Source of the DNA: a virus | Taxonomy: Duplodnaviria > Caudoviricetes | Virus record (IMG/VR): IMGVR_UViG_2939702853_000004 | Location: 1 to 64,000 of that record | DNA length: 64,000 nt | Reading direction: 5' to 3' (one strand) | In this document: positions 4,840-45,122 of the stretch, in pieces | Position numbering within the stretch: position 1 is the first letter of the stretch | Layout: the number at the start of each line of letters is the position of its first letter | Position numbers and translations under genes: made by a program | The notes under the pieces: model-generated | The model's database searches: none | Told to the model about the DNA's origin: nothing | What the model saw: only the letters and a program-made list of their open reading frames with translations

Positions 4840-7800
4840 TTATCCATGTAATTGCTCCTTATCTGTGTATTTTGAATAACCAGTAATCCATATATCCGTT
4901 TGGTCAGTCGGTTTAAATCCGCCATTTCCATCAGGAACTTGTCTAGTCTTCTTTTTATGGTTAGTTATTTCAATAAGATCACCTTTGTTAATTTTTAGAG
5001 TTGTATCTTTTGTGTTAAAAGTTTTTTTGTCCATCTTAAATATTCGCTCTTCTCCACGTCTTAGATTGTATAAGGTAAGCTTGGGAGAATATTTAGTGTC
5101 CAAGTCAGTTACAACACACCAACTCGCGTTTGCATTGGGATATTTTGCATCAGAATAACCTAACATTTCTTTTTGGAACATGACTATTTCATTTGGTAAC
5201 AGCTCTTGGATTTCATTATTTGATCTTAGTTCTGACTCTATTAGTCTTAATTCTTCCAATCTCTTATTTTTAGTTTTTTCAACATACGTCTTTTTGTATT
5301 GATTTTTACCACTAGAAAATTCATTATATATAGCCATCAATAAACCGTTGTTGCCATACTCAGAAAAGAAGTTTAGTTTAAGTAATATATCCAACTGCCT
5401 TGTATTTACTGAAGTTTTTTCAGTAACATCCACCAACAAATCTATAAAACTATCATATGTATTTTGGCTTAACTCCAATAATTCAGAAGCAATTTTTGCA
5501 TTCAAAAACTTAATTGATTCCAAGCCTTTATATATCGTGTTTTCTTTTTCATTGTAAGAATAATCTGCATTCGACTTACCGAACTTAATTGACGATACCT
5601 CTATACCTCTAGACTTAGCATATACAATTATTTGCCCAGTCTTATCGATATTATCGTTATTTATGTTCAACATGACTGTTAAAAAAGCTAAGGGATAATA
5701 ATATCTCAAATAACCGTTACCATAACCAATATGAGAGTATGGGTTTGAATGATTGTCGGAGAAACCATATCTCTGTGCATCGTCAATTACTTGTAAGAAT
5801 GGTTCGAGTACTGCCAAAGCTAAATCTTCAGTTTCTCCATAATCTTTTTGCATTTTTGCTATGAACCTTTTTCGTATTTCTGGTAGGAATTTTTCAGTGC
5901 CCTCTTTTTTACTAAGCCCTCGACGTACACTATCGCTTTCTGCCATCGTAAAATCACAAAACTCAACAAGAAAATTCATGATTTGTTCTTGATAAACTAG
6001 ATAACCAATTGTACTTTTCAGAAAACTATTCAACGCTTTATGTCCGTGATCTTTGAATACCCCATTCGCCAAAGCTTGCCTGTAAGAATCTCCAGATGGT
6101 CGAATTGCTCCATTTCCAATTGAAAATAATTCAATATAACTAAAGTTCGGATTCTGCTTCTTTATTTTATGTATTGTTTCAGGACTTAGTAAATCTTTGA
6201 GATATGCCTGAGCGGAATTGCTTTCCCATTGGAAAATACCAAGTCCAGATTCTCTTATTGAATTCCAGACACTCTCGTCATCAACATCCATATTGTCAGG
6301 AGTCAATCTATTTATTCCTGCTAATTTGCACGCTTCATTGATAATTTCATTATTATCTAGACCAAGTATATCTAATTTTACATAATTGAGACCGTCAAGT
6401 TCCTTCATATTAATTTGACTAACTGGATACTTACTCTCTTTTGTATAGCAAAGCCCAATATTGTCGTCTAAGCTAATCGGTGAAACTATATATCCAGAAG
6501 GGTGAGAACCAATACTTAGTATTACTCCTTGAACTAGATCGACGTATTTAAAAAGATCTGGATATCTTTCGATATATTTGGAATCAACCTTGTCCTTTTT
6601 ATCATCGTCCTTGTATACAGACTTTGCGATTTCATCCACTATTGAAAGCTCCATATTTAATGCTCTACCAATTTCTCTGATTGCCCCTTTTAATGCAACT
6701 GTATTAAAGGTTATAATTTCAGAGAAATAGATGCCGGGAATAGTTGCTACGTAGTCAATCACATCTTGTCTCTTAGAAGGAGGCCAATCTAGATCTATAT
6801 CGGCTAGTGAAATGCGCTCTGGATTCAGGAAACGAAAGAAATTTAGTTTATGCTTAATGCTATCCATCTCTGTAATCTTCAAAAGATAAGCAATCAAACT
6901 TCCGTTTACTGAACCTCGTCCATATCCTTGATATATCTCATTTTTGTGCGCCCAATCCACCACATCTTTTTGAAGCAACATATAATCAATTGCTCCAACT
7001 TTCTTATATGTATCAAACTCTTCTCTGATTCTTTCGAAGTAACTCCGTTTCTTTTCTGCATCAAACCTATTTATTCCTCTTTCAACTACACCTACATTTA
7101 TCTTCTCTTTAAAAACTTTCTCTGGATCGTGATACAATTTTGGGTATTTAGGAGACGAATCGATTTTAAACTCTTCAATCATATTAGCCATAACATTTGT
7201 ATTATGAATCGCTTCAAGATAAGCGCTTCGTGGCATTGAATTTTGTTCCTCAAACATTTTTACTAATTCAGGATAGGTCTTGAATGTTAAGTCGAACGCA
7301 TCTTCGTCTCCATAAGTTGCCCCTTTCGCCTTCATAAGAATAGTTCTAGCAGATGCATGAGCTTGATTAAGTGCATGTGTATCTGTTCCAGCAATAAGCG
7401 GAATTCCAGTCTCTTTAGAAATGTTGTATAGATGCTGATTAAACAGTTTTTGTTCTGGATGAGTATGATACTGAATTTCAAAGAACATTCGATTTTTACT
7501 TTTCACGAAGAAATCCATTAGTCGGTTATACATCTGTTTGTTGTCATTCTTAATTGCTCTCCATAGTGGTGATGCTAAACAGGCAGATGTCATAATGATA
7601 TTGTCTGAAGTGTTAAATAACTCATCGAATGTTAATCTAGGGTTATAATAATAATGTCCATCTTCTTTGTTGTTGGATGTAGACGTCAATCGATTCAGCT
7701 CTTTTACTCCGTCCCAATTTTTAGCTATAAGCATGTAATGGAAATTGTCTCGAATTAATCCTCGTTCTCTATCGTTGTGTTCAGTTAGATACACTTCATT

Positions 7801-8013
7801 GGCATGGATATATTTCATACCTTTTTCTTCAATCGATTGTTTCTTTTTTACCCAGTTAAATACGTTGCCATGCTCTGAAAAACAAATTGTACTCATCTGC
7901 GCTTGCTCTGCTGCATCTATGTATTGTTTGAATTTTGTAACTGAGTCCACAGCCATCGATGTCGATGGATTGCTATTATCAGAATGCAAATGATAAATCA
8001 CATAGTTATCTAT
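4840..8013 (-). CDS. dnaE: Phage DNA polymerase III alpha subunit (DnaE type); probable ATA start at 8013
   Basis: PHP domain (HLHSD, EHG, TDTH), GRGS, FFRFLNPER..ADIDLD, HPSG, KLDILGL, YQEQIM. RBS GAGGT is 8 nt before an in-frame ATA. Confidence 0.93.
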   Translation of the reverse strand: MDNYVIYHLHSDNSNPSTSMAVDSVTKFKQYIDAAEQAQMSTICFSEHGNVFNWVKKKQSIEEKGMKYIHANEVYLTEHNDRERGLIRDNFHYMLIAKNWDGVKELNRLTSTSNNKEDGHYYYNPRLTFDELFNTSDNIIMTSACLASPLWRAIKNDNKQMYNRLMDFFVKSKNRMFFEIQYHTHPEQKLFNQHLYNISKETGIPLIAGTDTHALNQAHASARTILMKAKGATYGDEDAFDLTFKTYPELVKMFEEQNSMPRSAYLEAIHNTNVMANMIEEFKIDSSPKYPKLYHDPEKVFKEKINVGVVERGINRFDAEKKRSYFERIREEFDTYKKVGAIDYMLLQKDVVDWAHKNEIYQGYGRGSVNGSLIAYLLKITEMDSIKHKLNFFRFLNPERISLADIDLDWPPSKRQDVIDYVATIPGIYFSEIITFNTVALKGAIREIGRALNMELSIVDEIAKSVYKDDDKKDKVDSKYIERYPDLFKYVDLVQGVILSIGSHPSGYIVSPISLDDNIGLCYTKESKYPVSQINMKELDGLNYVKLDILGLDNNEIINEACKLAGINRLTPDNMDVDDESVWNSIRESGLGIFQWESNSAQAYLKDLLSPETIHKIKKQNPNFSYIELFSIGNGAIRPSGDSYRQALANGVFKDHGHKALNSFLKSTIGYLVYQEQIMNFLVEFCDFTMAESDSVRRGLSKKEGTEKFLPEIRKRFIAKMQKDYGETEDLALAVLEPFLQVIDDAQRYGFSDNHSNPYSHIGYGNGYLRYYYPLAFLTVMLNINNDNIDKTGQIIVYAKSRGIEVSSIKFGKSNADYSYNEKENTIYKGLESIKFLNAKIASELLELSQNTYDSFIDLLVDVTEKTSVNTRQLDILLKLNFFSEYGNNGLLMAIYNEFSSGKNQYKKTYVEKTKNKRLEELRLIESELRSNNEIQELLPNEIVMFQKEMLGYSDAKYPNANASWCVVTDLDTKYSPKLTLYNLRRGEERIFKMDKKTFNTKDTTLKINKGDLIEITNHKKKTRQVPDGNGGFKPTDQTDIWITGYSKYTDKEQLHG

Positions 8014-8090
8014 AGTTGGTTACCTCGCTTTCCTTTTAAAATATTGATTTTATTTAGACCGAACTTGCTTAACTTCACCTCCTTCAGCCC

Positions 8091-8159
8091 GTTACTTCAT
8101 AGAGAATAATCGACTCAATTATATAATGAAGTACATATAATTATTCTCTATGAAGTAAC
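8091..8159. repeat. Perfect 20-bp inverted repeat between phage spoVK and dnaE
   Basis: GTTACTTCATAGAGAATAAT (8091-8110) and ATTATTCTCTATGAAGTAAC (8140-8159). Confidence 0.9.
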
Positions 8160-8170
8160 ACAGTGCTCAA

Positions 8171-9148
8171 TTATTGTGATATGAAAATTTCATTCTTATC
8201 AATGTCTTTAATTGAATCTGTTGATATGTCTCTTGGTAAAATATCCATTAAATTTTGTTTTGATATTTTGACACGTCTGCTCATTATCCTGACAGCCTGA
8301 TGCCGAATCGCTTTTTCGATCACATTGCGGACATAACGCGCGTTGCTGAAATTTAATCTACTGTCCTTTTCAATCTGAATTATTTCCTTTAACTTAATCA
8401 TTGCGTCAGTGGTGAGATTGTAATCTTTTTCAACTGCCATTTTAACAGCAATTAGCATTAGCTCGTCTGTTGTGTAGTCCTTAAAATCAATCTGAATTGG
8501 AAATCTAGACGGAAGGCCAGTATTTGTCTTAAGAAACATCCCCATTTCATCGGGATATCCAGCAAGTATTATTATCAAATCGTCACTTCTATCCTCCATT
8601 ACTTTTACAAGACAATCTATCGCCTCCTTTCCAAAATCCTTATCGCCACCTCTCGCCAAGCTATAAGCTTCATCAATGAAAAGAATTCCCCCCATTGCTT
8701 TTTTGACCAGATCTCGTGTCTTTTGAGCCGTGTGCCCAATGTATTCTCCAACTAAGTCTGCTCGTTCTACTTCAATTAAATGACCTTTACTCAGAATCCC
8801 CATCTTGTTTAATAATTTTGATGCTATTCTTGCTACTGTCGTTTTCCCCGTACCGGGATTCCCCTTGAAAATCATATGGTAAACTTGGTTGTTACTTTTT
8901 AAACCTTCTTCATTTCTTAGTTTCTGAACCTGTATTAGCGCATAAATTTCAAAAATAAGATCTTTTACCTTTTCAAGTCCAATCATTTCCTCTAGTCCTC
9001 GGAAAATGTCTGCTGCTGTTTCGTAATGATTACTGGTTAATGCGACTTCTTCGTTTTGATCAGATATTGCATCATAGGCATCTTGACTTTTAAATACAAC
9101 ATTAATTCGTGATTCATTAACAGTAATTTTTCTGGAGCTTTCATCCAC
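8171..9148 (-). CDS. spoVK: Phage-encoded full-length SpoVK-like AAA+ ATPase
   Basis: HMIFKGNPGTGKTTVAR, GHLIEVERADLVGEYIGHTAQKTRDLVKKAMGGILFIDEAYSLARGG, FSNARYVRNVIEKAIRHQAVR. RBS GAGGTG 6 nt before GTG at 9148. Confidence 0.93.
   Translation of the reverse strand: MDESSRKITVNESRINVVFKSQDAYDAISDQNEEVALTSNHYETAADIFRGLEEMIGLEKVKDLIFEIYALIQVQKLRNEEGLKSNNQVYHMIFKGNPGTGKTTVARIASKLLNKMGILSKGHLIEVERADLVGEYIGHTAQKTRDLVKKAMGGILFIDEAYSLARGGDKDFGKEAIDCLVKVMEDRSDDLIIILAGYPDEMGMFLKTNTGLPSRFPIQIDFKDYTTDELMLIAVKMAVEKDYNLTTDAMIKLKEIIQIEKDSRLNFSNARYVRNVIEKAIRHQAVRIMSRRVKISKQNLMDILPRDISTDSIKDIDKNEIFISQ
8291..8350. repeat. 60-bp exact direct repeat shared with the host spoVK fragment (1492-1551)
   Basis: gacagcctgatgccgaatcgctttttcgatcacattgcggacataacgcgcgttgctgaa is identical at both loci; the flanks diverge immediately. 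Confidence 0.95.
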
Positions 9149-9168
9149 AGTAATCACCTCGTTGAGAC

Positions 9169-9198
9169 AGTATATGCCTTTACGTGACTACAACATGC
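9169..9198 (-). promoter_or_regulatory. Putative sporulation (sigma-E-type) promoter of phage spoVK
   Basis: Minus strand GCATGTT-N15-CATATACT resembles the sigma-E consensus (kCATAtt-N15-CATAcanT), about 20 nt upstream of the start codon. Confidence 0.6.
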
Positions 9199-9254
9199 AA
9201 ATAAGTTTGTTCAAATAGTTAATCTGATTAATTATTTATTTGTTTTATGTATTT

Positions 9255-9270
9255 GTAGGCCGAAGCCTAC
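9255..9270 (-). terminator. C(UUCG)G hairpin directly after the parM/RHH operon
   Basis: GTAGGC-TTCG-GCCTAC; lacks a strong U tract. Confidence 0.45.
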
Positions 9271-9542
9271 TATAAACCTATAAATTCATCTAAACTTTTA
9301 TCAAGCGCTTCTTCCGATGAATCAATTAACTCGAATTCTCCTGTTGTTTCATCTGACATATCTAATTCAATTTGGCTACCCAAAATCTCAGGCTTTCTAC
9401 CTTTATGGCTAAATAAAAATTGTCTTAATGCTTCTCTGACAATATCGCTTTCATCATAGTAAACGGGCAATAGAGATAACGCCTTTCTTATATCATCATC
9501 TTTTTTGTCTCTCAGTCTAGCGCTAACTATTCTCTTCCCCAT
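9270..9542 (-). CDS. Ribbon-helix-helix DNA-binding protein (ParR-like adaptor)
   Basis: IVSARL...DDDIRKAL...SDIVREALRQF pattern, acidic tail, overlaps the parM stop. Confidence 0.65.
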   Translation of the reverse strand: MGKRIVSARLRDKKDDDIRKALSLLPVYYDESDIVREALRQFLFSHKGRKPEILGSQIELDMSDETTGEFELIDSSEEALDKSLDEFIGL

Positions 9543-10492
9543 AGCCGCACCCCAACTTTTTCATATCCTCTTATTTGAGCCAGTTGGTCAAAGAGAATTT
9601 TATTATTGAAATTGAGTGTATCGAAAATATGATGTGCTGCACCTCCACCAATTAAATAATAATCAAAATTTATGTTTAATCCATCCGCCTCATTTTGAAT
9701 TTGAATTGCTAAGGATTTGAATGCTTTAGCTATTAGTGGCTTAATGTTAACCCCTTCGTAAATGCCGCTCATAACTATTTTATCCATCTCATAAATAGCT
9801 GGAGCTTGTCCTACTAGATTTTGTATATATTTTCTCAATAGTTTATATGCTTTTTCCACACCCAATAGTAAACTCGTAGATTCTTTCATGATTTCAAGTT
9901 TATCGAGTCCAAGTAGATTTAAGGTGTAAAATCCCAGATCAATCACTAGTATCTTCTTTTTGGCTATATGAACCTTTTCAATTTTACCTTTTATATTAAG
10001 CAGGTAATCCATTGCTATTCCATACCCTTGTGGCACAATCTTATATTTAATTATGTTTAGGCTAATTTCCGAATAACGTCCTCGTCCTTTTTTAATACTG
10101 TATGTACTATTGCTACTTATTTTATCGAGCATCTTTTCCATATCGCTTTTCTGATCGAAATAGAATGAAACAGGTAGTCCAGTAACCATCTTAAATGGGT
10201 TGTTCCCATTCAAATAACCAAGCCCAGTTTTCAATAGCACCTCTGATGTCATAGCCTCACTCTTATTGTTTTTAAGGGTAAAATATTTGATCTCGCTATG
10301 TCTGAGTGCAAGGTCGCCAATAAATAGCTGTTCATTGTAAAAGAAATCATTAGGCTTTATATTCTCATCAAACATCGGTTGTGTTTCACCTGATATTGAG
10401 GGTTGAAGATATAGCCTGTTTCCTCTTTTCCCTTTAGTCCAACTAAATCCTAAATCAAATACACTTAAGTCCTCAACAACAGTTGAAGCCAT
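9527..10492 (-). CDS. ParM/StbA-family actin-like ATPase
   Basis: Phosphate-1 DLGFSWTK, VTGLP, VPQGYG, phosphate-2 IDLGFYTLN, adenosine motif IGGGA. Confidence 0.88.
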   Translation of the reverse strand: MASTVVEDLSVFDLGFSWTKGKRGNRLYLQPSISGETQPMFDENIKPNDFFYNEQLFIGDLALRHSEIKYFTLKNNKSEAMTSEVLLKTGLGYLNGNNPFKMVTGLPVSFYFDQKSDMEKMLDKISSNSTYSIKKGRGRYSEISLNIIKYKIVPQGYGIAMDYLLNIKGKIEKVHIAKKKILVIDLGFYTLNLLGLDKLEIMKESTSLLLGVEKAYKLLRKYIQNLVGQAPAIYEMDKIVMSGIYEGVNIKPLIAKAFKSLAIQIQNEADGLNINFDYYLIGGGAAHHIFDTLNFNNKILFDQLAQIRGYEKVGVRLWGRE

Positions 10493-10714
10493 GATATAAC
10501 CTCCTCATACAATTAACATCATACGACGACATTAGCATACAGTGTCATAAGATGTAATACATTTGATAAATTCATTATATCACACCTTCTAACTATTGTA
10601 TATATTTTAATTATTTTTGTATATAAAATCAGGATTTTACGTAGAAATCACTATCATAAAATCCCTATAAACATTAAGTTTTTTGATTTTCTTATATTGA
10701 TTTATCGGACAAAT

Positions 10715-11107: not shown

Positions 11108-11215
11108 GAATATTCTCCTTTTCTTAAATTAATTAGTAATGCAACAATTGTTCCAAGTATTGAAGACATCCCAAAATACATTAATGCTTCTAAAATGCTC
11201 ATTTATAGCTCCCTA

Positions 11216-11629: not shown

Positions 11630-11660
11630 TCGATACTCCTTTCCTGATCAAATTCATGTT

Positions 11661-14258: not shown

Positions 14259-14320
14259 ACTGAATCCCTCTCAATATTTAATAAAACAAGTGTTTTACCG
14301 TAATGCGTATTTATATTTAA

Positions 14321-19572: not shown

Positions 19573-20116
19573 TCATCCTCTCAAAGACATGAATAGAATA
19601 ACGAAATAATTGAATAATATGTGGCTTGATATCGGTACTAAGATGTTATCTGTCTTTTTATAATACCAACTCCATACGATGCCAATAAATACGTAGCTAA
19701 AAAAATTGATCATACTAAAATGTGGTATCGCGAATATTGTAGAGCTTATTATTGCTGAAGCCCAAAAGCCGAATCGTTGATTTAGTTTGGCGAATATGTA
19801 CTTCCTACAAATCAGCTCTTCAATGATAGGGCTGAAAACAATAGCATATATGTACATAATAGGTGTTTGAATAAGCGGCTTTGACATTGGATCAATAAAC
19901 AGTGACGACAATTTTGTTAGAGCGGCAAACCCCATTATAGCGAAGCAGAACGAGTTAAAAATTGATTCCCTATTTATCTTTGAGTTAATTTGTTCATAAT
20001 CTTCCTTAAGTAAATGTCTACCAAATCTCATTAATAATCCTAAGATTATTGTAGGTGCAATATTAAGCAGAAAGTAAATCGTACACTTTCACATCCTTCT
20101 TTAACAAATCATTCAT
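19573..20116 (-). pseudogene. CPBP (CAAX/Abi) intramembrane metalloprotease, frameshifted near the 5' end
   Basis: PIIEELICR, FAIPH and SHILFN motifs. RBS GGAGG plus ATG at 20116 is out of frame by one base. Confidence 0.7.
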
Positions 20117-20213: not shown

Positions 20214-20900
20214 TTATTTATTTAATTCGTCAATGCTAATAGGGAATTTTTCTTTTGCTAAATCAATAACCGCTTTGGCGTATTCTTGAATCTCCTTTTG
20301 AGCATCATGTTCGAGTCTCTGGTTTAAGAAGTGACAAACACCTTGAAGAGAAGTAGACCAATACCAACGCACATACATACCATATGCCGGGAGAAACAAC
20401 CTTGCTTGCTCTGCACAAATGCCTTTTTCGATAGCCCATTCATAATTAGTTTCTGCGTCTTCAATGGTCTTGAATAGTCTATGGGTAGCTTCTTCGCCAA
20501 GTTCAAACTTAACAATATCTCCGCTGCCTTGCTTTGAGTTTTCAGGTTTAGAACGCCACTCATTAAATGCTGGTACATGAAAATTTGGTTCTTCAGTGAT
20601 GTAGCGACGACTAGATTCATTCCAAGCATCCATTGTATGGTCAGAGCCAACGATGTATTTCCACCATTGTCGTGCTACCATAAGAGGAGCATATACCTCA
20701 AATTGTAGAAATGCATGTCTGAAAGGGCTTGAATGTCCTTCTCTTGCTAGAAATTTAATTAGCTTGATATCTTTTTCAGTTAGTTCTTTTGATTCTTTAG
20801 CATATGATGTTTTTGCAGCATTAACCACTGTAAGATCGGAACCCATTACATCTACAAGTCTAACATAACCCTGATCTAATACATCAATTTTATTAAGCAT
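20214..20900 (-). CDS. thyX: Flavin-dependent thymidylate synthase ThyX (in frame with the upstream HNH, own RBS)
   Basis: VLDQGYVRLVDVMGSDLTVVNAA, HSSPFRH, APLMVARQW, WNESSRRY, EQARLFLP, HDAQKEI. AAGGAG precedes the ATG at 20900. Confidence 0.93.
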   Translation of the reverse strand: MLNKIDVLDQGYVRLVDVMGSDLTVVNAAKTSYAKESKELTEKDIKLIKFLAREGHSSPFRHAFLQFEVYAPLMVARQWWKYIVGSDHTMDAWNESSRRYITEEPNFHVPAFNEWRSKPENSKQGSGDIVKFELGEEATHRLFKTIEDAETNYEWAIEKGICAEQARLFLPAYGMYVRWYWSTSLQGVCHFLNQRLEHDAQKEIQEYAKAVIDLAKEKFPISIDELNK

Positions 20901-21428
20901 TTTATAATTTTTCTCCTTTTTAATGTTATATATAGTTTCTTTTGTAACGTTATATTCAATAGCTAAATCATCAGCCTTAACACCACTTTTTAATTTTTTT
21001 CGTATATTTGTAATTTCATTGTCATTAAATAATGCGTTTTTTGGTCTTCCTTGTGATTTCCGAGCTATACTAGCGCAAAGATGTCTTATGTATTTTGGTT
21101 TATCCATATTATTTTCTGAGTGAGTTCCCATAACTATATTTTCGATTCGTATATTTTCTGTATTTGCATCTAAGTGACGAACAACCTTTCCATCTTCAAA
21201 AGATTTTTCTCCATAGAAACAATATGCAGCAAACTTATGAACAGGTACTCCATAAATACCAGATTGAGTAAAATCAACCTTAATAGAAAACGTTGGGTAT
21301 CTTTGCCTACCTCTCTTCTTTACTGCCAAGGGGCATCCTTTTAATCCGATTAATTTACCATCAACCGTAACTCTATATCCTTTTTCATAAGCTAGGATTA
21401 TTGCTTTTCGCATACTACCATTTTTCAT
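20901..21428 (-). CDS. HNH endonuclease with C-terminal HTH, with no stop codon before thyX
   Basis: VHKFAAYCFYG...VVRHLDANTENIRIENIVMGTHSEN; HTH LAIEYNVTKETIYNIK. Confidence 0.8.
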
Positions 21429-21497
21429 CTTTAATTTGGTACATCCTTTTATATTAGTCATTTTTAAAGGCAGTGGATTTACCACCGCCCATTCGTA

Positions 21498-25786: not shown

Positions 25787-27742
25787 TTATTTATGTTTAA
25801 CTCGGTCTTTTTCTTCTGCTCTCTTTGCAGAATTGAAGCGATTCAGATTACCGACTAAATATCCTGTAACTCTGCGAATCCGTGAGATATTTTCTTCGTC
25901 ATTCTCTCCACAAATAGGGCATTCTTTATTTATTACTCCATCAAAATTACAAGATAAGCATTTGTCTATAGGATGATTGACGCTGAAATACCCCATGTTT
26001 TTGTTTAAAGCATATTGAACAATTCGTTTAAATGCTTGTAGGTTATTCCTTGCGTTTCCATCCAACTCAACATAAGATATGTGCCCTGCATTAGTTAATT
26101 TGTGGAAAGGGGCTTCACGCTCAATTTTTTCATATGCTTTAATCTCGTAATAGACTGGTACATGAAAAGAGTTAGTTAGATAATCTCTATCTGTTACGCC
26201 CTCAATTTTTCCATATTGATTCTGAAGTAGTTTCGCAAACTTACCCGCTAGGCTCTCTGCTGGAGTCGCAAAGCAGGTGATGTTCATATCATATTCATCT
26301 GACTTTCTATCACAAAAGTCCTTAATGTAACAGATAATATTATATCCAGCTTTCCATGCTTCTTGATTTTCACCGTGATGGACTCCATATAACGCCTTAA
26401 GACATTCTGCTAATCCTACAAATCCAATGCTAATTGAACCTGAACGAAGTAAGTCCCCTATTTTATCATTAGGCTTTAGTTTCTCGCCACCAATCCAAGA
26501 ACCGTTTTGCATCATAAAGTCACTTGCCTTTGCTGGCTGTTCACACTGGATATTGTAACGATGAATTAAGCCTTTAAGTGTTACATCAAGAACTTCGTCC
26601 AACTTATTCATGAGTCCGACAATATCTCTTTCTTTACGACCGTTGACTATCCCATACTCAATTCCAAGCTTCGTTAGGTTAATAGAGTTAAAAGATAGGT
26701 TTCCTCTACCAGATTGAGATGGTTCACCAAAACGATTAGATATTACACGGGTTCTACATCCCATTGTTGCTATTGCAGTATCCGGCTTGTTGGGATCGTA
26801 GTATTGAAGATTGAAATCGGCATCCACATTACAAAAGTTTGGAAATAGTCGTTTACTTGAACATTCAAGTGCTTTCATGAATAAATCATAATTAGGATCA
26901 GATTCGTTTTGATTTATTCCTTTTTTACATTGGAAAATAAGTTGAGGGAAAATTGCCGTCTCTGAGTGTCCCAATCCATTGATTGATGCTGTTAATAGTG
27001 AGTCTGAGATTAATCTTCCTTCAGTCGAAGTGCAGAGACCGAATGTAACACTTGTAAATGGTACTTGCCCTCCAGCACGAGATGCCATTGTATTAAGATT
27101 ATGAATCAAACTTTCAGATGCTTGATATGTTTCGATCTTTGTTTCTTCTTTTGCATATGCATAAGAATTCGGAAATACCTTGCTAAGTTCTGCATTGTCT
27201 AAATACAATTGATCATCTTCAACCTCTGAAAAAAGTTCATTAAAGTACTTTTGTCCTTTTCTAAAATGCTTTTTAAATGACTTAGTTACATATGGAGCTA
27301 AATCCCAGTCAAACTTTGAAGCCCCACATCCTCCATATTGGCTGTTCTGCTGACATTGAAAAATAATTGCTGCTTGAGCCATTGCAGTCATGATTGAGTT
27401 TGGCGACCTTACAGATCCTTTGTCACTAACCTCAAATCCATTTGCCAATAACTTATCAAAGGGAATAAATAAGCAGTTGTGCGTCCCAATTGCGTAATGA
27501 TCCAAATCATGCACATAGACATATCCTTCATCTATTGCCTTGACTAGCCGTTCTGGTAGTACTATATTTCGTGCATACATTTTACTGTATTCAGAACCAA
27601 ATCTATTCATCTTTCCACTATAAGACTCGCCGTTAAGATTAGCATTTTCTTTTGTTATGTCTTCATTTCTACCTGAAATAATTCCTTCTCCAACACTATA
27701 CAGATCGTTATCATTAAATTGTTGCGTATGTATCATCTCCAT
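25787..27742 (-). CDS. nrdD: Anaerobic class III ribonucleotide reductase (no ATP cone)
   Basis: ENAN, YVHDLD, HNLNTMASRAGGQVPFTS, MGCRT, GRGNLSF, TPAE, TNSFHVP, Zn site, glycyl-radical motif RRVTGYL. Confidence 0.95.
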   Translation of the reverse strand: MEMIHTQQFNDNDLYSVGEGIISGRNEDITKENANLNGESYSGKMNRFGSEYSKMYARNIVLPERLVKAIDEGYVYVHDLDHYAIGTHNCLFIPFDKLLANGFEVSDKGSVRSPNSIMTAMAQAAIIFQCQQNSQYGGCGASKFDWDLAPYVTKSFKKHFRKGQKYFNELFSEVEDDQLYLDNAELSKVFPNSYAYAKEETKIETYQASESLIHNLNTMASRAGGQVPFTSVTFGLCTSTEGRLISDSLLTASINGLGHSETAIFPQLIFQCKKGINQNESDPNYDLFMKALECSSKRLFPNFCNVDADFNLQYYDPNKPDTAIATMGCRTRVISNRFGEPSQSGRGNLSFNSINLTKLGIEYGIVNGRKERDIVGLMNKLDEVLDVTLKGLIHRYNIQCEQPAKASDFMMQNGSWIGGEKLKPNDKIGDLLRSGSISIGFVGLAECLKALYGVHHGENQEAWKAGYNIICYIKDFCDRKSDEYDMNITCFATPAESLAGKFAKLLQNQYGKIEGVTDRDYLTNSFHVPVYYEIKAYEKIEREAPFHKLTNAGHISYVELDGNARNNLQAFKRIVQYALNKNMGYFSVNHPIDKCLSCNFDGVINKECPICGENDEENISRIRRVTGYLVGNLNRFNSAKRAEEKDRVKHK

Positions 27743-33360: not shown

Positions 33361-33365
33361 TTTCT

Positions 33366-33887: not shown

Positions 33888-33911
33888 TCAACATTCTCCT
33901 TTATGTATGTA

Positions 33912-36944: not shown

Positions 36945-38591
36945 TTATTTTGTTTGATTTGCTTCTTTATAATCCTCAATGAATAATTGGCAGGTTTTAA
37001 TCACCTTATACTTGGGCCTGTATTGAGTCCAATAGTTCATATTTAACGATCCTATTGCTTCAACCTGAGCAAAGACTGGAACCCTGTTATAGTATTCCAG
37101 ATCAGTTTTAAACTTCATTAATTCTAAATTGCCGCAATAGACCTTAACAGTGTTTTTGGTTTTACCCAATGGTTTTTTATCTTCAACAAATATATCTACG
37201 ATTTTAAAATTGCCTTGTTCAAAATCTTTGCCTGTGACTTTATAAAATTCTTGCACTTGTAAAATTAATCTCTCGTTTATTTCTGTTTTGTTGAACTCCA
37301 AATCATAGAAAAGCGAGTCGTCAAAGACATAATGTATTAATTTTTCATTAAGCTCCTCTTTCAGTAGGAGCATTTCATCCTTCCTTACGGATGTGCCTCC
37401 AGCTCCGTTGTGTCCTGCACCATATTTCGCGTATTCACATGCATTTAGTAGGTCCATCATCGAAAATTCGGCATCGTTCCATCTATAACTTCCTGCAAAA
37501 TATTCACTGTCTTCCGAATCACCAAGTATGATTGTGGGTCTATTATTATCCTGAGAAATATCTTGCGCTACAAGCCCGTTATACCCTTTTCCGATATTTG
37601 GATCATAAAGAACTATACATTTGTCTGATTTGTCTATCAGAGGCTTAAGCCTTTCAACTGCTTTTGCCTGAATCTCCTTGCGTCTGTCATTCTCATTAAC
37701 TAACTGCTTAACCAATCTCTTAGTTTCATCTTCATCTTCACAAAGCATAAAGTTCAATGCTAGTTTCATTTTGTCTGCTCTAGTGGCTGCGGTAATACAT
37801 GGAGCCACACCATAGGAGAAATCTGTTCCATTAAGTTTATTTAGATCTTTTCCTAGTTCCTTAAACAACAACTGTAGGCCGCGATGCTGAACGTTTTCCA
37901 ATGCGTTTTTGTAATAAAACCTATTCTCCATTTCTTTCATTGACATCATATCCGCAGCTACTGCAAATCCAGCAAGATCAATGTATTGATTAGAGTAGTC
38001 TGTAGCCATGTAATCGTCCAATACGGAACATACTTTCCAAACTAGCAATCCACCCGAAACATTCTTATTGGGATATCCACATCCCTCTTGCCGAGGATTC
38101 ACTAAGATACAATATGGATTGTCTCCGTTTACTGTATGATGGTCAATGACGAGACAATCAATTCCTTTATCGATCAATATTTTCAATGGCTCTAAATCAT
38201 TACTACTACTGTCTACTGCTATGTATAAATCTGTATTGTCGTCAATTTGATCGACTATAAACTCCGATCCGTGACCAACAGAACGTTCCACATGTTTGAT
38301 AGAAACATTGCCAGTGAAATTAACTAGCCATTTATATAAAATGACTGCGGAAGAAATTCCGTCATAATCTACATCTGCATAAATTATAATTTTTTCGTGA
38401 TTCTTTATCGCTTTAATGATTCTATTAGCCATTGCGTCTATGTTTTTCAATAGATAGGGACTATGTGTGTGACTTGGTGATGGATTCAGAAATTGATTGA
38501 AGTCTTCGATTCCGTTGATCTTTGCTAACTTCTCATGCAATGTGTCGTAAGTCTCAAATGGTATTTTAGGTTGTTTCTGTTTCCAATCTAT
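36945..38591 (-). CDS. recJ: RecJ-like DHH ssDNA exonuclease; probable ATA start at 38591
   Basis: YADVDYDG, VIDHH, LVNP, ADMM, GAGH..AGG. The frame stays open upstream to an ATA 8 nt after GGAGTG. Confidence 0.9.
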   Translation of the reverse strand: MDWKQKQPKIPFETYDTLHEKLAKINGIEDFNQFLNPSPSHTHSPYLLKNIDAMANRIIKAIKNHEKIIIYADVDYDGISSAVILYKWLVNFTGNVSIKHVERSVGHGSEFIVDQIDDNTDLYIAVDSSSNDLEPLKILIDKGIDCLVIDHHTVNGDNPYCILVNPRQEGCGYPNKNVSGGLLVWKVCSVLDDYMATDYSNQYIDLAGFAVAADMMSMKEMENRFYYKNALENVQHRGLQLLFKELGKDLNKLNGTDFSYGVAPCITAATRADKMKLALNFMLCEDEDETKRLVKQLVNENDRRKEIQAKAVERLKPLIDKSDKCIVLYDPNIGKGYNGLVAQDISQDNNRPTIILGDSEDSEYFAGSYRWNDAEFSMMDLLNACEYAKYGAGHNGAGGTSVRKDEMLLLKEELNEKLIHYVFDDSLFYDLEFNKTEINERLILQVQEFYKVTGKDFEQGNFKIVDIFVEDKKPLGKTKNTVKVYCGNLELMKFKTDLEYYNRVPVFAQVEAIGSLNMNYWTQYRPKYKVIKTCQLFIEDYKEANQTK

Positions 38592-41500
38592 AGCAAAATC
38601 ACTCCCTTAAACAGATTATTGTATGCTTATTTTGAATTTTTCAGGTAGTGTAATTTTAAGATCATTGTTTATTGCTTTCATAAAACTATAAGTGAGATAC
38701 CTATTTTCTTTTCCTGTCTGTTTGTTGACGATCTTGATATTCGCTTCTCGTTTCATATCTAATCACTCCTCAGTCCAGGTTAGTTTAATGCCATGCAATT
38801 CAACATCTCTACCTTTTCGGTGTCACTGAATCCCTTCCATGCAACTTGCATCTCCAGTAAAATCGAACCAAATTCACGCCAATTGCCCTCACTGTTTCTT
38901 GTGACAATCCCGTATCCATTAATCATTTCTTCTAAAACATCCATCCTGATCGCCTCCTTAGTTTGGTGCTGCCATAACATGAGGAATTCCTCTTCGCTTA
39001 TCCTTAATAAAGACTTCATTTGTGTCCAAGTTAACAATTCGATAATTCCTGTGCATATCCACGTACTACCACAATACATAGGCAACGTGTTCCATTGAAC
39101 TCCAAACTGTTGCTTCTTCAGCAGTGTTAACATCCTCATAAGGATGATCTAAACCCGAGTCCATATGCAAAAGATATTTTATTTTCCTGTGGCTGTAGCT
39201 TGAATAACAAATCTAGAAGCCTTATTAGTCATTGTTGTTGCTCCCCAAAGCCTTTTCACACGCTTTCTTTACTTCACTGGCAGAGAAAAAGACATGCACT
39301 GCACTACCTTTATAGCCATATATCTCACCATCAAATTCGGCTGTAATTCTTCCTATTGGCCCACCCGGAATGAGACGCTTTGTATCCTTCTTACCCCATT
39401 TACCCGGCATAACAAGACCAACTTGAGCATCTTTGCCCAACATATTAATTTGGGTATTGCATCTATCTAGTAATTGTTGTACTTGCATACTTTTACTCCT
39501 TATAAAATAGTAGTTTTACTCATCATTTTATTGTTTTTCCATCCGTGCCTCTGCTTCATCAATAAGCGATTCGAATGAATCTTTAATTGTTTTTGCATAT
39601 TTCAACCATCCTTCAATTTCCCAAGGTGACATTTCTGCATTACTATCTCGAAACTTAGTAGACAGACCCTGAATCTCTTGTTGAAGATATAAAAAGCGTT
39701 TATAAAATCCCATATCCGTTCTGATTGGATGTTTTCGTGTATCAGGTTCATGATAAACTGAATTTACGTCAGTCCAGAAAATCTCCCCATTCTCTACTTC
39801 CACATACAAACTATCTCCATCTACTTCTTTTACTAATGCTTGCAAACCAATATTAAAATCATAATCACTTCTCTCGATTTCAACATATGTATCTTTTAAA
39901 TAGCAATAATCCTTTGTTTTAATTTTCATTTTCATTCCCCCTTGTTTTTTAATGACAAAATCTTGTTTTTACCGAACATCTATTTGTTCAATTTCCAGTA
40001 CCCTCTATTAATCCACTCTTTTACTGCATCAATAGGATAATGACGAATAATGAAAGGGTATGAAACTGAATTGACAATATAGTCATTATTAGTTTTGACT
40101 GCAAAGAATTTCTCGCCTACTACATTTTCAAAATAAAATGAATCTTCTAGTTTAATCTCATTCTTGTCATTATTCATTACTTCATCAAGTTCTTTGAGCA
40201 ATGAGTGCATTTCTTCATTTTCTCTTGAAATCAAAAAATTGATGTCGTTTTGGCTATATTTATTTTTAATCAAATCAATTCTTTCGTTAATTCGACGAAT
40301 GCGTTTTTCTTTCACGATCTTTTTAAGTACTCGGTTTTCATGATTTCTCATATCAACTTTCGCTACAATCCATTTCGTAGCTACGCAATCAGACTCTTCC
40401 ACTTTAACCACTCTTGCTGTCTCAAATCCTCTAGATGTATCGCAAACTACCCAATCATCTTTTTTAAGTTCAATATCTGTTTTGAATGCATATAGTGCTG
40501 GGTTTCCATTGTGTTTCACAAAAGCGATTTTGGTCATATGTATTATTCTCCTTTATCTATGTAAAAGTATATTTTTATAAAAAAACTATAGTGTCGTACG
40601 AAGTTCGTTTAGGGATACCGCTCCACCAAATGTACACTTGAGGTTAAACACACCCTTCATGTCGCTCTTCTTAATAATGTAAATATCTGACCCATCGTAG
40701 AAAGCTTTGTTGTGTAAATCTTCATCGGTTCTCCCAAGTTCTAATTGTTTTGAGATCCATTCGCTTATTAGCGCAGAGTTAGACTTCATTTGCTATTCTC
40801 CTTTCTTTGTAAAACTCTTCTTTTATGATCTTAGTTATATCTCCAAGCAACCAAAGGAATATCAGCATCTACTGACTTAAAATTTTTATTAACGAGTTTA
40901 TCAATTCCTATACTGTGCTTAAAAGCCAACTCCCTAACATATCTAAATGCACTACGTTAGAATATAATGTTGCGGGTCCTTCTGCATTTAGAAATTCAAG
41001 GATTGTCTTTGTGGTACTTCCGTTACCAACATTTTGCATCTACAATCTCTCCTTTTGTTTATAATTACTTGACTTGTTTAATTTTATATTCACTAATAAA
41101 ATGCTCTAGGCTGCGCTTTTGATCTTCAGTCAACATCAGTGAGTAATTTACCAATGTCTTTTCTTTCGGTGAAGGTTTATTAATTTCTTTGTATGTAACG
41201 CTTGAAATCTCATCAATCCAATAAAGTCTATCTCCAACATCTTGTTTGGCACTTGCTATATCTGCATGAATACTGACACTATAAAATTTGTCTGCTACTT
41301 TACAAATAAGTGACGCTTCATCCTCGTAATACCCTTGTCCACAATCTAAGTAATCTCTACCGATATCTTTAAAGTGCTCTACGATATCATTTTCTTTGGT
41401 TAAATATACTTCGTCTTCAATTACACCATATTCATCAATTAGATATTGCTCCATGTTAGTGATCTCCTCTTTGTATATTTATTTTGGTAAAATTCAAATT

Positions 41501-41850
41501 TTATAGGCTCACATGTGCAAGTTTGAGAGGTTGTTGGCTATGAACGACCTATGATCAACCTCTACTATGTATTATTATTTATTTTTGTATATAAAACTTT
41601 GCCTTACAATAATACATGAACCCTGTTGAATCTTTTCCTTCATCGTCAACTATATATGCTTCTGCTACACCGCATGAACTCGCGTTTGCCTCCCATCTGT
41701 GTAATTTGTAATACTTACCGACTGTGGTTTTAATATTGAATTTCTTATCTACTATAAAAACATGAGTTGCTTCATCTATATTCTCAGTGGGAATTAGATT
41801 TGCAGGTTGCTCTTCGTGCATGGAACCACACCTCTCTGTTTCGTATTTTA

Positions 41851-41879
41851 ATTATATTTGTATATCGGATTACTGTCAA
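41851..41879 (-). promoter_or_regulatory. Perfect-consensus sigma-A promoter overlapped by the operator-like motif
   Basis: TTGACA-N17-TATAAT. Confidence 0.8.
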
Positions 41880-41914
41880 CTGATATTTTAATCTGTGTAA
41901 AAACTATATTTTAC

Positions 41915-42952
41915 TCAAACTGGTATCTTGTATTTTTCTTCATTCATTAATGTCATAAAAAATTCTATCCCTTTATCAATTGGCGCATCCTTTTCTCCCA
42001 GTACATTTCTATTCCTATGTGCCAATATACAATAAACATTATCTCTAATAATAAATTTACTTGCTTCCTCTTTTAGATCGCTGGCGCTTATGTTATTATC
42101 GAAGGCCAATATCACATCTACCCCTAAACGCTCAAGCTTCAACACCTGTGTTTTGCTTAATTCATGCCCACCAACACTCACAGTATGCTTAATACCATAA
42201 CTCCACGCCTTCTGGACGCTCTTCTCGGCTTCCCATACAATCACTCTGCCAGCCTTTTTTATATGATCATATGTCTTATCTAAACCGTATAGGATTTGGC
42301 TCTTTGGGGTAGGTATAGGGAACCAATATTTAGATGTTTTTAATTTTTTATAATCAAGTGTAGTTCTTCCTTTGACTCCAACTAGCGCTCCTAGTTCGTC
42401 TCTAATCGGTATTGTTATACAGCTATCCCTAAGAGAATATCCAACTTCAAATAATCTCTGCGCATCACAACCTATTCCTTCATCAAGAAATAGTTTATTA
42501 GGGAAAGATATGTACGAATTCAGAATAGACTCATCCACTTTTCTTAGTGGTACTTCATCGTAGACTTCGGTCTTTGGTTCAATCAAATCTAAAAAATGAA
42601 GACACGGATCGATTTCTTCTTTTGTATATTTATAGTCAGCGTAGTAGCTATAACCGCAAACCTCACAAATATAATACATAGCTTTTGAAAATGAGATATC
42701 TTTATAATGTTGAACAAGTGTTATGATATCTGGATGTCCACTACCCAGCTTTGGAAGCGGATTTGTGTAGCAGTTTACAAGTAAAGTATCAGTGAAAACC
42801 TGAAGGCTAGAAGGGTTATCTCCTCCCGGCCTTGTTGATCTTATTTCCCCATAGCTAGACATCCTATCATTGATATGACAACCGAGAGATGTTAAAATAT
42901 CCGCAACTTTATTGTCTCTTATTATGTATTCTTTTAAAGTTTGAGCATCAAT
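41915..42952 (-). CDS. DnaG-like primase (TOPRIM); probable ATT start at 42952
   Basis: ITIPIRD..G.LVGVKGR, KSQILYGL, WEAEKSV, LAFDND. The frame is open 30 codons upstream of the track start, to an ATT 7 nt after GAGGTG. Confidence 0.88.
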   Translation of the reverse strand: MDAQTLKEYIIRDNKVADILTSLGCHINDRMSSYGEIRSTRPGGDNPSSLQVFTDTLLVNCYTNPLPKLGSGHPDIITLVQHYKDISFSKAMYYICEVCGYSYYADYKYTKEEIDPCLHFLDLIEPKTEVYDEVPLRKVDESILNSYISFPNKLFLDEGIGCDAQRLFEVGYSLRDSCITIPIRDELGALVGVKGRTTLDYKKLKTSKYWFPIPTPKSQILYGLDKTYDHIKKAGRVIVWEAEKSVQKAWSYGIKHTVSVGGHELSKTQVLKLERLGVDVILAFDNNISASDLKEEASKFIIRDNVYCILAHRNRNVLGEKDAPIDKGIEFFMTLMNEEKYKIPV

Positions 42953-42970
42953 TTTATATCACCTCTCAAG

Positions 42971-44503
42971 TCATTCTTCTTTGTTAAGTGCCTTTTTCAA
43001 ATCCTTAACTTGTTTTTCTGTTTTAAGCTTCTTGCTTTCTTTTTTGAGTTGCTTTAATTCCTTCTCGTTTTCAGAAGGTACAAGATATCCTCTCTCAATC
43101 CATATATTTTTACCTTTATCAACCTCAAAACATAAAATATCCTTATCTTTACCACCACGGTTTTTATCAATAACAACCATATAATAGTTTGTATGTATAT
43201 CTAATTTAGTTGTAGATTCTCCAACAAACGGGTCATTAGGATTGAATATAACAAACTTATCGTATTGATCTTTAGATATTGGTTTAGCCATCATTAGTGC
43301 ATCGGCTACGTGCTTAATATGTTTACCGTTAGCAATGGCTTGGCTTGTCAGCATATCATTAAACAAACTATCATCCGTCAATTGGAATGTAGACCATACT
43401 GGGATATCCTCAGTGCTTGCCACTTCCTTCAACATATCGGCAGTCCTAACAAATGTCATCCAATCATGATCAGGCGCTTTCATTGTGTCATATATAATTA
43501 ACTGACAATTTCTTAATTTGTGTCTTTTAATTTGTCGCTTAAGAGTGTTTTCGTCATACTTATTGAGTTCTAAGAAATAAATCTTACTGTTCTCTTTTAT
43601 GTATCGAGCCGCTTCCTTAACGATCTCTTCTTCGTCTTCAGTCAAAGTTCCAGTTACAATTTTCGTTTCATCGATTCCGTCTATACCTTTTCTTTTCATT
43701 TGAATATCGAATCCAAATTCGGGATTGTTTAGGACGCTACTGATCTGCATACCCAACCATTCATTTTCATCCTGTTCATTCACAAGTACCAGCACAGGGA
43801 TTTTCAGCTTAATTCCAAGATAACATGCTATTTTACTTGTAGTACGACTTTTACCACATCCACTATGCATCCCAAAAAGGTTGAATTTCTTACCCCTAAG
43901 TCCACGCAATAGAGAATTGATTATCTCAAATGGAATTGGTATTCCTACGTCTGGAGTTAACTTCCATTCTTCAATCTTTTCAGGCATGTTATGTCCTAAA
44001 ATAACACTGTCTTCTACTCCACCAATCACTGTACCAATAGTATTGATCTGGTACTCCATCCCTTTTATGATGTCTTCGGTTCCAATCTTATCGAAATCAT
44101 TTCTATCCATTAACTTTTGAACCGGGAAACCTTTTCGTTCAAATTCTCTAAGCAGAGAAAACTTTTTAAGCTTCTCATAATAGCCGGGGAAATCATCTAA
44201 ATCAACTATTCTTGTAATTCTATCTATGTATGAGTAGCCCTTCAGATAATCATACTTCTTTTTTCGTTCATCATTCGAATTCATATAGATGTTTATTTTC
44301 ACTTCATTTATTTCTGTTCCTGCATGTTGACTATATAAATCAAGTAATGAATCGTACATAAACCTAGCCGATGGCTGATTAAAATCATATTTAGATTTAA
44401 TCACTTCGCTATAATCCAAAAGTAGATCGGGGTTTAAATAAAAACTTCCCACCACTAACATTTCAGTTGAAATGTCTTCGATTGTAGATGTTACGTCAGA
44501 AAT
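42971..44503 (-). CDS. DnaB-like replicative helicase; probable ATT start at 44503
   Basis: Walker A-like GMHSGCGKS, IIYDT, STFQL, IDKNRGG. RBS GAGGAGGG 7 nt before ATT. Confidence 0.88.
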   Translation of the reverse strand: MSDVTSTIEDISTEMLVVGSFYLNPDLLLDYSEVIKSKYDFNQPSARFMYDSLLDLYSQHAGTEINEVKINIYMNSNDERKKKYDYLKGYSYIDRITRIVDLDDFPGYYEKLKKFSLLREFERKGFPVQKLMDRNDFDKIGTEDIIKGMEYQINTIGTVIGGVEDSVILGHNMPEKIEEWKLTPDVGIPIPFEIINSLLRGLRGKKFNLFGMHSGCGKSRTTSKIACYLGIKLKIPVLVLVNEQDENEWLGMQISSVLNNPEFGFDIQMKRKGIDGIDETKIVTGTLTEDEEEIVKEAARYIKENSKIYFLELNKYDENTLKRQIKRHKLRNCQLIIYDTMKAPDHDWMTFVRTADMLKEVASTEDIPVWSTFQLTDDSLFNDMLTSQAIANGKHIKHVADALMMAKPISKDQYDKFVIFNPNDPFVGESTTKLDIHTNYYMVVIDKNRGGKDKDILCFEVDKGKNIWIERGYLVPSENEKELKQLKKESKKLKTEKQVKDLKKALNKEE

Positions 44504-44516
44504 GTTATCGCCCTCC

Positions 44517-45122
44517 TCAGTCAAACAGTGTTGTAACATCAATCTGGTCAGGCTCATCTTTTGATGCTACTTTGTTAATTTGAATCTGGTTAATCCTCTC
44601 GCGGACATTGCTCATTGATTCTACATGCTTACTCAAAGCTTCAGATTCAACTTGATTTCGCTTAGTTTGTCTATTCGCTCTAATGGAGTTTTCAATGTTG
44701 CTTTTTACTATTGCAAAACAATATTTTAGCTCAGCCATTATGGTTTTGAATTCTTTATTGCCTCTGGCCCATTCTATTTTTTCAAAGCAATAATTATATG
44801 TATCTTCAATAACTTTATACGATACTCCTTGCTTGTACCTTTTATTTATCTTCCCAAATAAAACCGAATCATTTCTAACGTCTTGTATAAATGGGAAGAA
44901 AGAATGAGGAATAGATGCTCTACCTTGCAATCTGTGTATTTTTACTATTTTATCTGTTAGAGAATCTTTTTCTTCTTGTTCTGATTGCTTAAAAGCTCTT
45001 TCTCTCTTCCATCTTTCATGACAGTATTCTTTGTGATAATGCCGTTTATCTGTTTCTCTAACCATATCTGCTTTATGACCGTATTGTCCACACACTGGAC
45101 ATTTCAATAATCGTTCTGCCAA
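44517..45122 (-). CDS. Zinc-finger replication protein upstream of the helicase (putative loader)
   Basis: CPVC...H..C motif; position upstream of helicase and primase; RBS AGGAGGTG. Confidence 0.55.
   Translation of the reverse strand: MAERLLKCPVCGQYGHKADMVRETDKRHYHKEYCHERWKRERAFKQSEQEEKDSLTDKIVKIHRLQGRASIPHSFFPFIQDVRNDSVLFGKINKRYKQGVSYKVIEDTYNYCFEKIEWARGNKEFKTIMAELKYCFAIVKSNIENSIRANRQTKRNQVESEALSKHVESMSNVRERINQIQINKVASKDEPDQIDVTTLFD

Follow-up and report, generated by a model that had tools for sequence, protein, structure and literature searches.

The 64,000-nt stretch analysed here (hereafter the window; genes are numbered on it, position 1 being its first letter) comprises positions 1 to 64,000 of the IMG/VR virus record IMGVR_UViG_2939702853_000004 and corresponds to G000:C10:54412-118411, where G denotes a genome, C a contig and, below, L a locus. 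The host genome, G000, is a 5.1-Mb Paenibacillus draft with a G+C content (GC) of 46.5%, whose named relatives are P. barcinonensis, P. illinoisensis and Paenibacillus sp. QZ-Y1. The GC falls to 31-36% in the part that runs from about C10:55,000 up to the end of the contig (155,605), and we identify this low-GC block as an integrated prophage with a length of at least 100 kb. In the open reading frame (ORF) listing, nearly all the prophage genes of the window lie on the minus strand. Pfam and PHROG searches found among them RusA, a DnaE-type polymerase, a SpoVK-like AAA protein, a ParM-like actin, NrdE, NrdF, NrdI, NrdD, an HNH-ThyX ORF, a RecJ-like DHH nuclease, a primase, a DnaB-like helicase and an ATP-dependent ligase; many other prophage genes had no known function in these searches. 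We consider here four replication genes of this set, dnaE, recJ and the genes for the primase and the replicative helicase, which appear to start on ATA or ATT.

Start sites of the replication genes

An earlier reading of the sequence (below, the original prediction) had described, at the head of each of these genes, a Shine-Dalgarno (SD) sequence placed at ideal distance from an in-frame ATA or ATT. All four sites, which lie on the minus strand, read as described (Table 1), with SD duplex energies of -12.2 to -13.9 kcal/mol at aligned spacings of 7 to 9. For comparison, the 143 canonical-start genes of the prophage have a median SD energy of -10.1 kcal/mol, and a spacing of 6 to 10 is found in 113 of the 143. 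The nearest ATG, GTG or TTG had been said to lack a well-placed SD, and the SDs computed for these codons are indeed weak or mis-spaced in all cases. As to the claim that a stop or the previous gene lies directly upstream, in-frame stops are present 2 to 5 codons before the start in dnaE, recJ and primase; at the helicase it is the preceding gene that lies there, its stop (44519-44517) being 13 nt upstream of the ATT, while the helicase frame itself is open upstream in the window. Two ATGs of this open frame, at 44557 and 44539, sit inside the preceding gene and are without SD (-3.0 kcal/mol at spacing 9 and -3.7 kcal/mol at spacing 10, respectively). In relatives, an in-frame stop that is immediately 5' of the SD or overlaps it precedes the ATT by four codons (G391, L146, L148 and L193) or by seven (G289), and the upstream ATGs are therefore excluded there. 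The primase ATT is 18 nt downstream of the helicase stop (42973-42971). All four ORFs, of 345 to 1057 codons, are intact.

Table 1. Positions, start codons and leaders of the genes discussed (SD energies in kcal/mol, followed by the aligned spacing)
Gene	Position	Strand	Codons	Start codon	SD	SD energy/spacing	In-frame stop upstream	Nearest canonical codon, energy/spacing	Match or remark
dnaE (DnaE-type DNA polymerase III alpha)	4840..8013	-	1057	ATA 8013-8011 (ATA GAT AAC TAT)	GAGGT 8026-8022, then 8 nt	-13.9/9	TAA 8022-8020	GTG 8001, -7.0/21	Pfam PHP, DNA_pol3_alpha, finger, HHH_6
recJ (RecJ-like DHH exonuclease)	36945..38591	-	548	ATA 38591-38589 (ATA GAT TGG)	GGGAGTGA 38606-38599	-12.2/9	TAA 38609-38607	TTG 38540, -2.7/11	Pfam DHH, RecJ_OB
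DNA primase	41915..42952	-	345	ATT 42952-42950 (ATT GAT GCT)	GAGAGGTGA 42967-42959	-13.1/9	TGA 42961-42959	ATG 42862, -6.4/18	PHROG 47, 7.5e-30
DnaB-like replicative helicase	42971..44503	-	510	ATT 44503-44501 (ATT TCT GAC)	GAGGAGGG 44518-44511, then 7 nt	-13.4/7		ATG 44461, -1.8/10	Pfam DnaB, DnaB_C
Zn-finger protein (YorH position)	44517..45122	-		TTG 45122	perfect extended SD	-19.3/7			PHROG 6344; head of helicase-primase block
nrdD (anaerobic ribonucleotide reductase)	25787..27742	-		ACG 27727 (candidate)	GGAGATGATACAT				Pfam NRDD
Rce1-like (CAAX protease/Abi) membrane protein	19573..20082	-		ACG 20082 or ATT 20079 (candidates)		-11.9/9			candidates read in the window

Translational coupling was considered as a general cause and rejected, since dnaE lies 158 nt downstream of the preceding gene. 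The question then arises as to whether ribosomes could start at an out-of-frame canonical codon beside the SD and reach the long frame by a frameshift. Suitable triplets are found in recJ (TTG, in TTG CTA TAG) and in primase (A-TTG-ATG), tiny out-of-frame ORFs overlap the starts of both genes, and a TAG stop overlaps the ATA in dnaE and recJ (CTATAG). However, a slippery sequence is lacking, dnaE and helicase have no such mini-ORF, and recJ relatives that keep the ATA behind other spacers (G421, L073, L075, L077-L081) have lost it. We therefore give this scenario hardly any credence; because the TTG/TAG mini-ORFs are neither present in all four genes nor conserved, a mini-ORF, frameshifting or reinitiation was rejected as the common mechanism.

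The region 5' of dnaE has some features of its own. Between 8073 and 8150 (minus strand), a perfect 19-bp hairpin (ttacttcatagagaataat ... attattctctatgaagtaa) precedes a strong SD-like GAAGGAGGTGAAG that has no start codon at usable spacing, and a 23-codon frame running from GAAGGAGGTGAAG ends in a TAG overlapping the dnaE ATA. A conserved motif located 5' of dnaE (AAATCAATATTTTA) was rejected as a repeated promoter, as the window contains one exact copy of it.

Orthologous starts and conservation in relatives

By protein match, the closest annotated relatives are the Bacillus phages vB_BcoS-136, FADO and PBC2 and the Clostridioides phage pCD1602_4; a megablast search of the phage collection with the dnaE region gave zero matches. 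The three Bacillus phages, which are large siphoviruses, have orthologs of DnaE (about 55% identity), RecJ, primase and helicase, and for dnaE and recJ their start codons coincide in the alignment with those of the window, but 11 of their 12 starts in these genes are ATG and the remaining one is GTG. The dnaE ATA aligns exactly with the start of four phage orthologs (three ATG, one GTG), M-DNYV facing (ATA)-DNYV. In recJ, the distant orthologs start on the same aligned codon, which is ATG or TTG (M-KW facing (ATA)-DW), and the primase and helicase N-termini agree with those of their orthologs within a few residues, with similar length and character. The N-terminal extensions that initiation at ATA or ATT would add thus align with the N-termini of canonical-start proteins, and the alignments support the view that the four codons are real orthologous start positions.

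A different outcome would be expected if the real starts were the nearest downstream canonical codons, giving shorter N-termini, and the ATA and ATT were chance triplets behind an SD-like sequence. The canonical ORF listing does give GTG 8001, TTG 38540, ATG 42862 and ATG 44557, and gene callers would pick these. Besides having weak or mis-spaced SDs, however, the first two of these codons lack conservation: G344 and G089 have GTA in place of GTG 8001, which hence cannot be the conserved dnaE start, and relatives have TAT in place of TTG 38540 of recJ. In the dnaE of G344 and G089, the next in-frame canonical codon falls within the PHP H-x-H motif. Moreover, the extensions, which align with the N-termini of canonical-start orthologs, evolve as coding sequence. 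Counting by eye, we found 8 synonymous and 2 non-synonymous changes relative to G289 in the primase extension (30 codons before the first ATG), and 6 and 3, respectively, relative to G089 in the recJ extension; in the helicase extension, the two types of change are about equal. We consider downstream initiation quite improbable.

The codons themselves are kept among close and mid-distance Paenibacillus-type relatives, in the form of ATA, ATT, ATC or ACG. For recJ, six of the seven other Paenibacillus genomes found have ATA (G089, G344, G289, G391, G279 and G421), in proteins 54 to 62% identical; TTG is present in G413 and in Chengkuizengella, and GTG in G292. Among 20 IMG/VR contigs, 12 have ATA and one has ATC at this site, and these 13 recJ genes are intact ORFs of 545 to 548 codons, with SD energies of -11.6 to -20.1 kcal/mol at spacings of 7 to 9. 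Five or more different spacers separate SD and codon in these contigs, which argues that the recJ codon itself is kept, and not its surroundings. In a recJ tree built on the C-terminal 460 residues, a well-supported clade of 27 rows has ATA as its deep state.

The two neighbouring genes give a similar picture. The primase starts on ATT or ATC in 12 of 12 close relatives: ATT in G289, G391 and nine IMG/VR contigs (74 to 94% identity), and ATC in a 54%-identical relative. For the helicase, ten of 12 close relatives have ATT (two genomes and eight IMG/VR contigs) and two have ATC, and both codons occur again in two relatives at 43 to 44% identity. The dnaE start is the most varied. Besides the ATA of the window, the 11 relatives have ATA in three cases (L098, L099, L101), ACG in four (G344, the same as L100; G089; L112), ATT in three (G391, L102, L119) and ATC in one (L125); TTG is found in G289 and G292, and ATG in most of the distant metagenomic relatives. 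Finally, a 174.5-kb genome of the IMG/VR direct terminal repeats class (G438, IMGVR_UViG_3300013102_000002) has ATT at both primase and helicase, so that the feature belongs to complete phage genomes and not just to possibly defective prophages.

These data bear on the possibility that the start codons were lost by point mutation in a defective, domesticated element. ATG is present at the aligned codons in distant orthologs, and lesions do occur in some related prophages, for example a 1-nt insertion in G421 recJ. But the orthologs with ATG, which the original prediction had named as the sign of strain-specific decay, are confined to distant Bacillus and Clostridioides phages, and the close and mid-distance Paenibacillus-type relatives keep near-cognate codons. 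Dozens of relatives, heavily diverged at synonymous sites, share these weak codons, the four window ORFs are intact, such codons are present in a complete genome with terminal repeats, and four third-base hits in four start codons, without further damage, are unlike neutral decay. We therefore regard decay as very unlikely, and the weak codons as conserved features, a conclusion supported by the comparison of relatives.

Start strength across the replisome module

Canonical starts in the G000 prophage are ATG in 107 of 143 genes (75%); for the lytic B. subtilis phage SPP1, AUG is reported in 90% of ORFs (PMC6316719). The five genes of the replisome module (Zn-finger protein, helicase, primase, RecJ and DnaE) start on TTG, ATT, ATT, ATA and ATA, that is, none on ATG. 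In G289 and G089, the Zn-finger gene has CTG at the same aligned codon, after a perfect AAGGAGGTGAT, and the divergent helicase of G089 has an apparent ATA start. A strict scan of the host genome gave about 13 ATT candidates, including infC, against about 2.4 per codon on average, and three ATA/ATT hits fall within the 64-kb window.

The same gene set in the same order (Zn-finger, helicase, primase, RecJ-like, DnaE-like) is known in SPbeta as yorH-yorI-yorJ-yorK-yorL, and blastp against YorI, YorJ, YorK and YorL gave values of 1e-35, 2e-19, 7e-44 and 1e-33, at 21 to 27% identity. The SPbeta module differs in using canonical codons only, with TTG for yorH, yorI, yorJ and yorL and ATG for yorK only, in the length of YorL (1305 amino acids, against 1057 for the polymerase here), and in gene arrangement, since in the window recJ and dnaE are set apart from the helicase-primase pair by other genes. 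By overall genome similarity the prophage falls outside the genus Spbetavirus, and its best protein matches are with large Bacillus phages, at about 55% identity. At the left end of the prophage (1402-3463), a SpoVK-like fragment (MEDQKNQF...) lies beside an integrase ORF, and the phage's own SpoVK-like gene, with AAA and AAA_lid_6 domains, is found at 8171-9148; an SPbeta-like phage with integration in spoVK has been described (bioRxiv 10.1101/2021.11.22.469490).

The original prediction presented the feature as one of four replication genes. The module does stand apart, with 0 of 5 ATG starts against about 75% elsewhere, but candidates were also found in other genes. The proposed ACG of nrdD, after GGAGATG, is present, and ACG and leader are kept in four relatives, in three of which the ACG yields the usual ATP-cone N-terminus, M-x-V-x-KRDG. 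The nrdD start is nevertheless ambiguous, because two in-frame ATGs (27742 and 27736), which have no usable SD, are sited inside the SD of the ACG. In the Rce1-like gene, the first ATG (20031) is 17 codons in, past a hydrophobic helix. Several further near-cognate candidates are found in G089 and G289, with CTG, ACG and ATT among the phage group; an ATA flagged in a DndB-like gene of G289 is probably false, as the family match begins past a good downstream ATG.

A few observations on these and other genes may be mentioned. A leader of the form GGAGATGAT(N)CAT-ACG (27742-27725, minus strand, in the window) is common to the window nrdD, the nrdD of four relatives (L207-L210) and the dnaE of G344 and G089 (L019 and L020), and could mark a recombination boundary or serve as a portable initiation cassette. 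Three of the nrdD relatives, two of them just 33 to 34% identical, have an N-terminal ATP-cone, which the window NrdD is without. In G438 (156703-159720, loci L208 and L211), nrdD is one open frame of 1103 amino acids, and the gap of about 1 kb that splits its match to the window NrdD suggests an intein-like insert. The HNH-ThyX frame (20214-21485, minus strand) combines HNH_3, HTH_7 and ThyX domains in a single open frame. Its head is without SD-backed canonical start; a CTG at 21473 follows GGGCGGTGGT, and ThyX has its own SD and ATG at 20900. Elsewhere in the same prophage, outside the window, a 161-codon ORF at C10:132156 (minus strand) has GAGGTG, TTAGCA and ATT (-14.1 kcal/mol) and no canonical start with an SD, and is another near-cognate candidate.

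Start-codon strength does not seem to vary independently of the rest of the gene. In dnaE relatives, the median SD energy is about -13.3 kcal/mol with a near-cognate start, against about -8.6 kcal/mol when ATG or GTG occupies the aligned codon, and the three recJ variants with ATG have an SD spacing of 12. A second kind of barrier is encountered in recJ: the six IMG/VR genes whose aligned codon is canonical (ATG in three, TTG in three) are all interrupted within DHH motif I. The interrupted loci are L082 and L084-L088 from IMG/VR and L047 from G413, with the interruption at codon 75; G413 has the same interruption, and its C-terminal protein region is identical to that of L086. The insert is 9 to 10 nt long and begins with TAG, as in GAT TAG TTAG GAT/TAT or GAT TAG CTA GAC/TAT. 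Take-off and landing read GAT TAG TTAG GAT in L084, L086, L087 and L047, GAT TAG TTAA GAT in L085 and GAT TAG CTA GAC in L088; L082 lands on GGC, a near match only. Both halves of the gene are under strong purifying selection, with a ratio of non-synonymous to synonymous change (pN/pS) of about 0.02 to 0.10 and pS up to 0.3-0.9. The 470 codons downstream of the insert are open in six of six cases, and a hop would restore D-x-D-x-D-G. A possible stem of 3 to 5 bp was noted by eye.

In its sequence features, the recJ insert looks like a candidate for programmed recoding, by a short hop in which the ribosome would leave GAT, pass the stop and resume at the following Asp codon. The insert resembles the bypass of T4 gene 60 in the stop after the take-off codon, the matching landing codon and the conservation of both sides, and it concerns recJ relatives and not the window. 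A recJ with a stronger start would then be paired with a low-yield hop step. Start and insert are about 225 nt apart and seem to co-move by recombination, so that one or two independent events may be involved. The G421 recJ (L046) has, in the same DHH motif, CCC TGA C, which resembles a release factor 2 (RF2) +1 site. The comparison of relatives supports a trade-off of start-codon strength against SD strength and spacing and, in recJ, against an internal recoding barrier.

Probable weak initiation and its possible control

Taken together, we estimate at roughly 0.7 the probability that the four codons are genuine near-cognate initiation codons selected for weak initiation. The ordinary initiator tRNA would read AUA, AUA, AUU and AUU on strong, well-spaced SDs, and purifying selection would keep the weak codons in a lineage of large (about 130 to 200 kb), low-GC temperate Paenibacillus phages, whose replication genes are distant homologs of the SPbeta module YorH/I/J/K/L. 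Weak and fidelity-sensitive initiation would hold the DnaE-type polymerase, RecJ-like nuclease, primase and DnaB-like helicase at a low set-point, and replisome output would then depend on whatever alters start-codon discrimination, for example the level of initiation factor 3 (IF3), or nutrient state and guanosine tetraphosphate (ppGpp). Position, orthology, conservation, coding signature and SD trade-off are read from the genomes; from them we infer weak translation, selection for low output and a regulatory use. As for the coordinated throttle on replication genes proposed originally, a shared down-tuning is the part that fits best (0 of 5 ATG against about 75%, with TTG in four of five SPbeta genes). 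In Listeria rsbW, also among the Bacillales, start strength follows ATG > ATA > ATT, ATA and ATT being functional but weaker (PMC13068326).

Several points weigh against selection for weak initiation. In E. coli cell-free translation, an AUA mRNA behaved like an AUG mRNA when the initiation region was optimised (PMC5499595). The grade of 'weak' for ATA and ATT is taken from other species, which do not give the size of a throttle in Paenibacillus, and initiation at the four codons is here a prediction from sequence. The SD energies were computed with the Bacillales consensus anti-SD, an assumption made because the assembly lacks the 16S 3' end. As the relatives are kin, the counts given above exceed the number of independent events, and loose counts of 'SD plus codon' over all ORFs, genome-wide or prophage-wide, are too noisy to stand by themselves, a signal being obtained only with the strict scan. 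Lastly, since non-replication genes of related prophages also carry candidates, 'replication-specific' describes a tendency and not a rule.

AUU and AUA starts are near-cognate codons subject to IF3 discrimination, and the AUU of infC underlies IF3 autoregulation. The host infC (C5:116173-116676) starts on ATT, so that this classical hallmark is present in the host. The original prediction supposed that the throttle might be lifted by a fall in IF3 activity or by a phage factor that alters it. All four phage sites have the attributes of an infC-type near-cognate site: an SD, no usable canonical start, a conserved N-terminus and a conserved codon. The likeness with infC extends to an output expected to be inverse to IF3 discrimination. 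The differences are that four to six enzymes of one phage module are concerned, that ATA, ATT, ATC, ACG and CTG interchange, and that no feedback loop is evident. With Listeria rsbW, the likeness is that ATA and ATT act as reduced-efficiency starts that alter protein stoichiometry; there, however, they are recent adaptive mutations in single isolates (PMC13068326), and here anciently conserved phage codons.

A phage factor modifying IF3, the ribosome or a tRNA might instead make AUA and AUU efficient during infection, in which case the codons would act as a switch and not as a throttle. The ATT start of the host infC, the many prophage genes without known function and the presence of one phage tRNA(CAU) are in keeping with such a factor. 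This tRNA, the sole one of the prophage, lies outside the window (C10:125742-125818, minus strand), and no tRNA gene was found in the window itself. Its G1-C72 pair and its A/U-rich anticodon stem, without the run of three G-C pairs, mark it as elongator-type, not initiator. It is probably the AUA-reading tRNA-Ile2, since ATA makes up 24 of every 1000 codons in the prophage and 8.8 in the host, a 2.7-fold difference. A special initiator tRNA was therefore rejected. A phage-encoded IF3 was likewise rejected: no IF3-like gene is present in the prophage contig C10, and the genome's only two IF3_C matches both lie on host contig C5, the second being an ORF at C5:10763-11008 (plus strand; 212 amino acids, 45.5 bits, above cut-off). 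The SD and recoding trade-offs, moreover, suit a low-output set-point better than a switch, and we hold the phage factor to be unlikely.

If initiation is weak and selected to be so, the question arises as to whether it is also regulated. E. coli pcnB (AUU) and Streptomyces sigR (GTC), which is repressed by IF3, are related cases (PMC5472188), and in E. coli extracts nutrient limitation and ppGpp impair non-AUG starts preferentially (PMC5499595). By analogy, a gating of the replication genes by initiation fidelity is plausible, given the known repression of sigR by IF3 and the ATT start of the host infC. The further proposal, that the near-cognate starts form a translational regulon tying phage replication to host IF3 level, ppGpp, nutrient state or entry into sporulation, is tentative and in our opinion rather doubtful. 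Were it true, the replisome would be built only in cells able to support a burst, and lineages would reach their output set-point by a weak codon, a poor SD or an internal recJ hop.

To our knowledge, confirmed near-cognate starts in bacteria are few and mostly concern single genes. Near-cognate starts and start-codon tuning are known already; a conserved set spanning a whole viral replisome module, in which ATA, ATT, ATC, ACG and CTG interchange and SD and recoding states compensate, was not found in the literature searched. If the recJ insert is a real hop, it would be a second natural case of short translational bypassing in a bacterial virus. For this phage group, the output of standard gene callers will have the four genes, and probably further ones, truncated or misplaced. 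A whole viral module with weak starts over deep divergence would offer a natural system for testing start strength against enzyme level, and for asking whether phages read the initiation fidelity of their host. The trade-offs seen among relatives suggest, in addition, a measurable constraint on replisome dosage in these phages.

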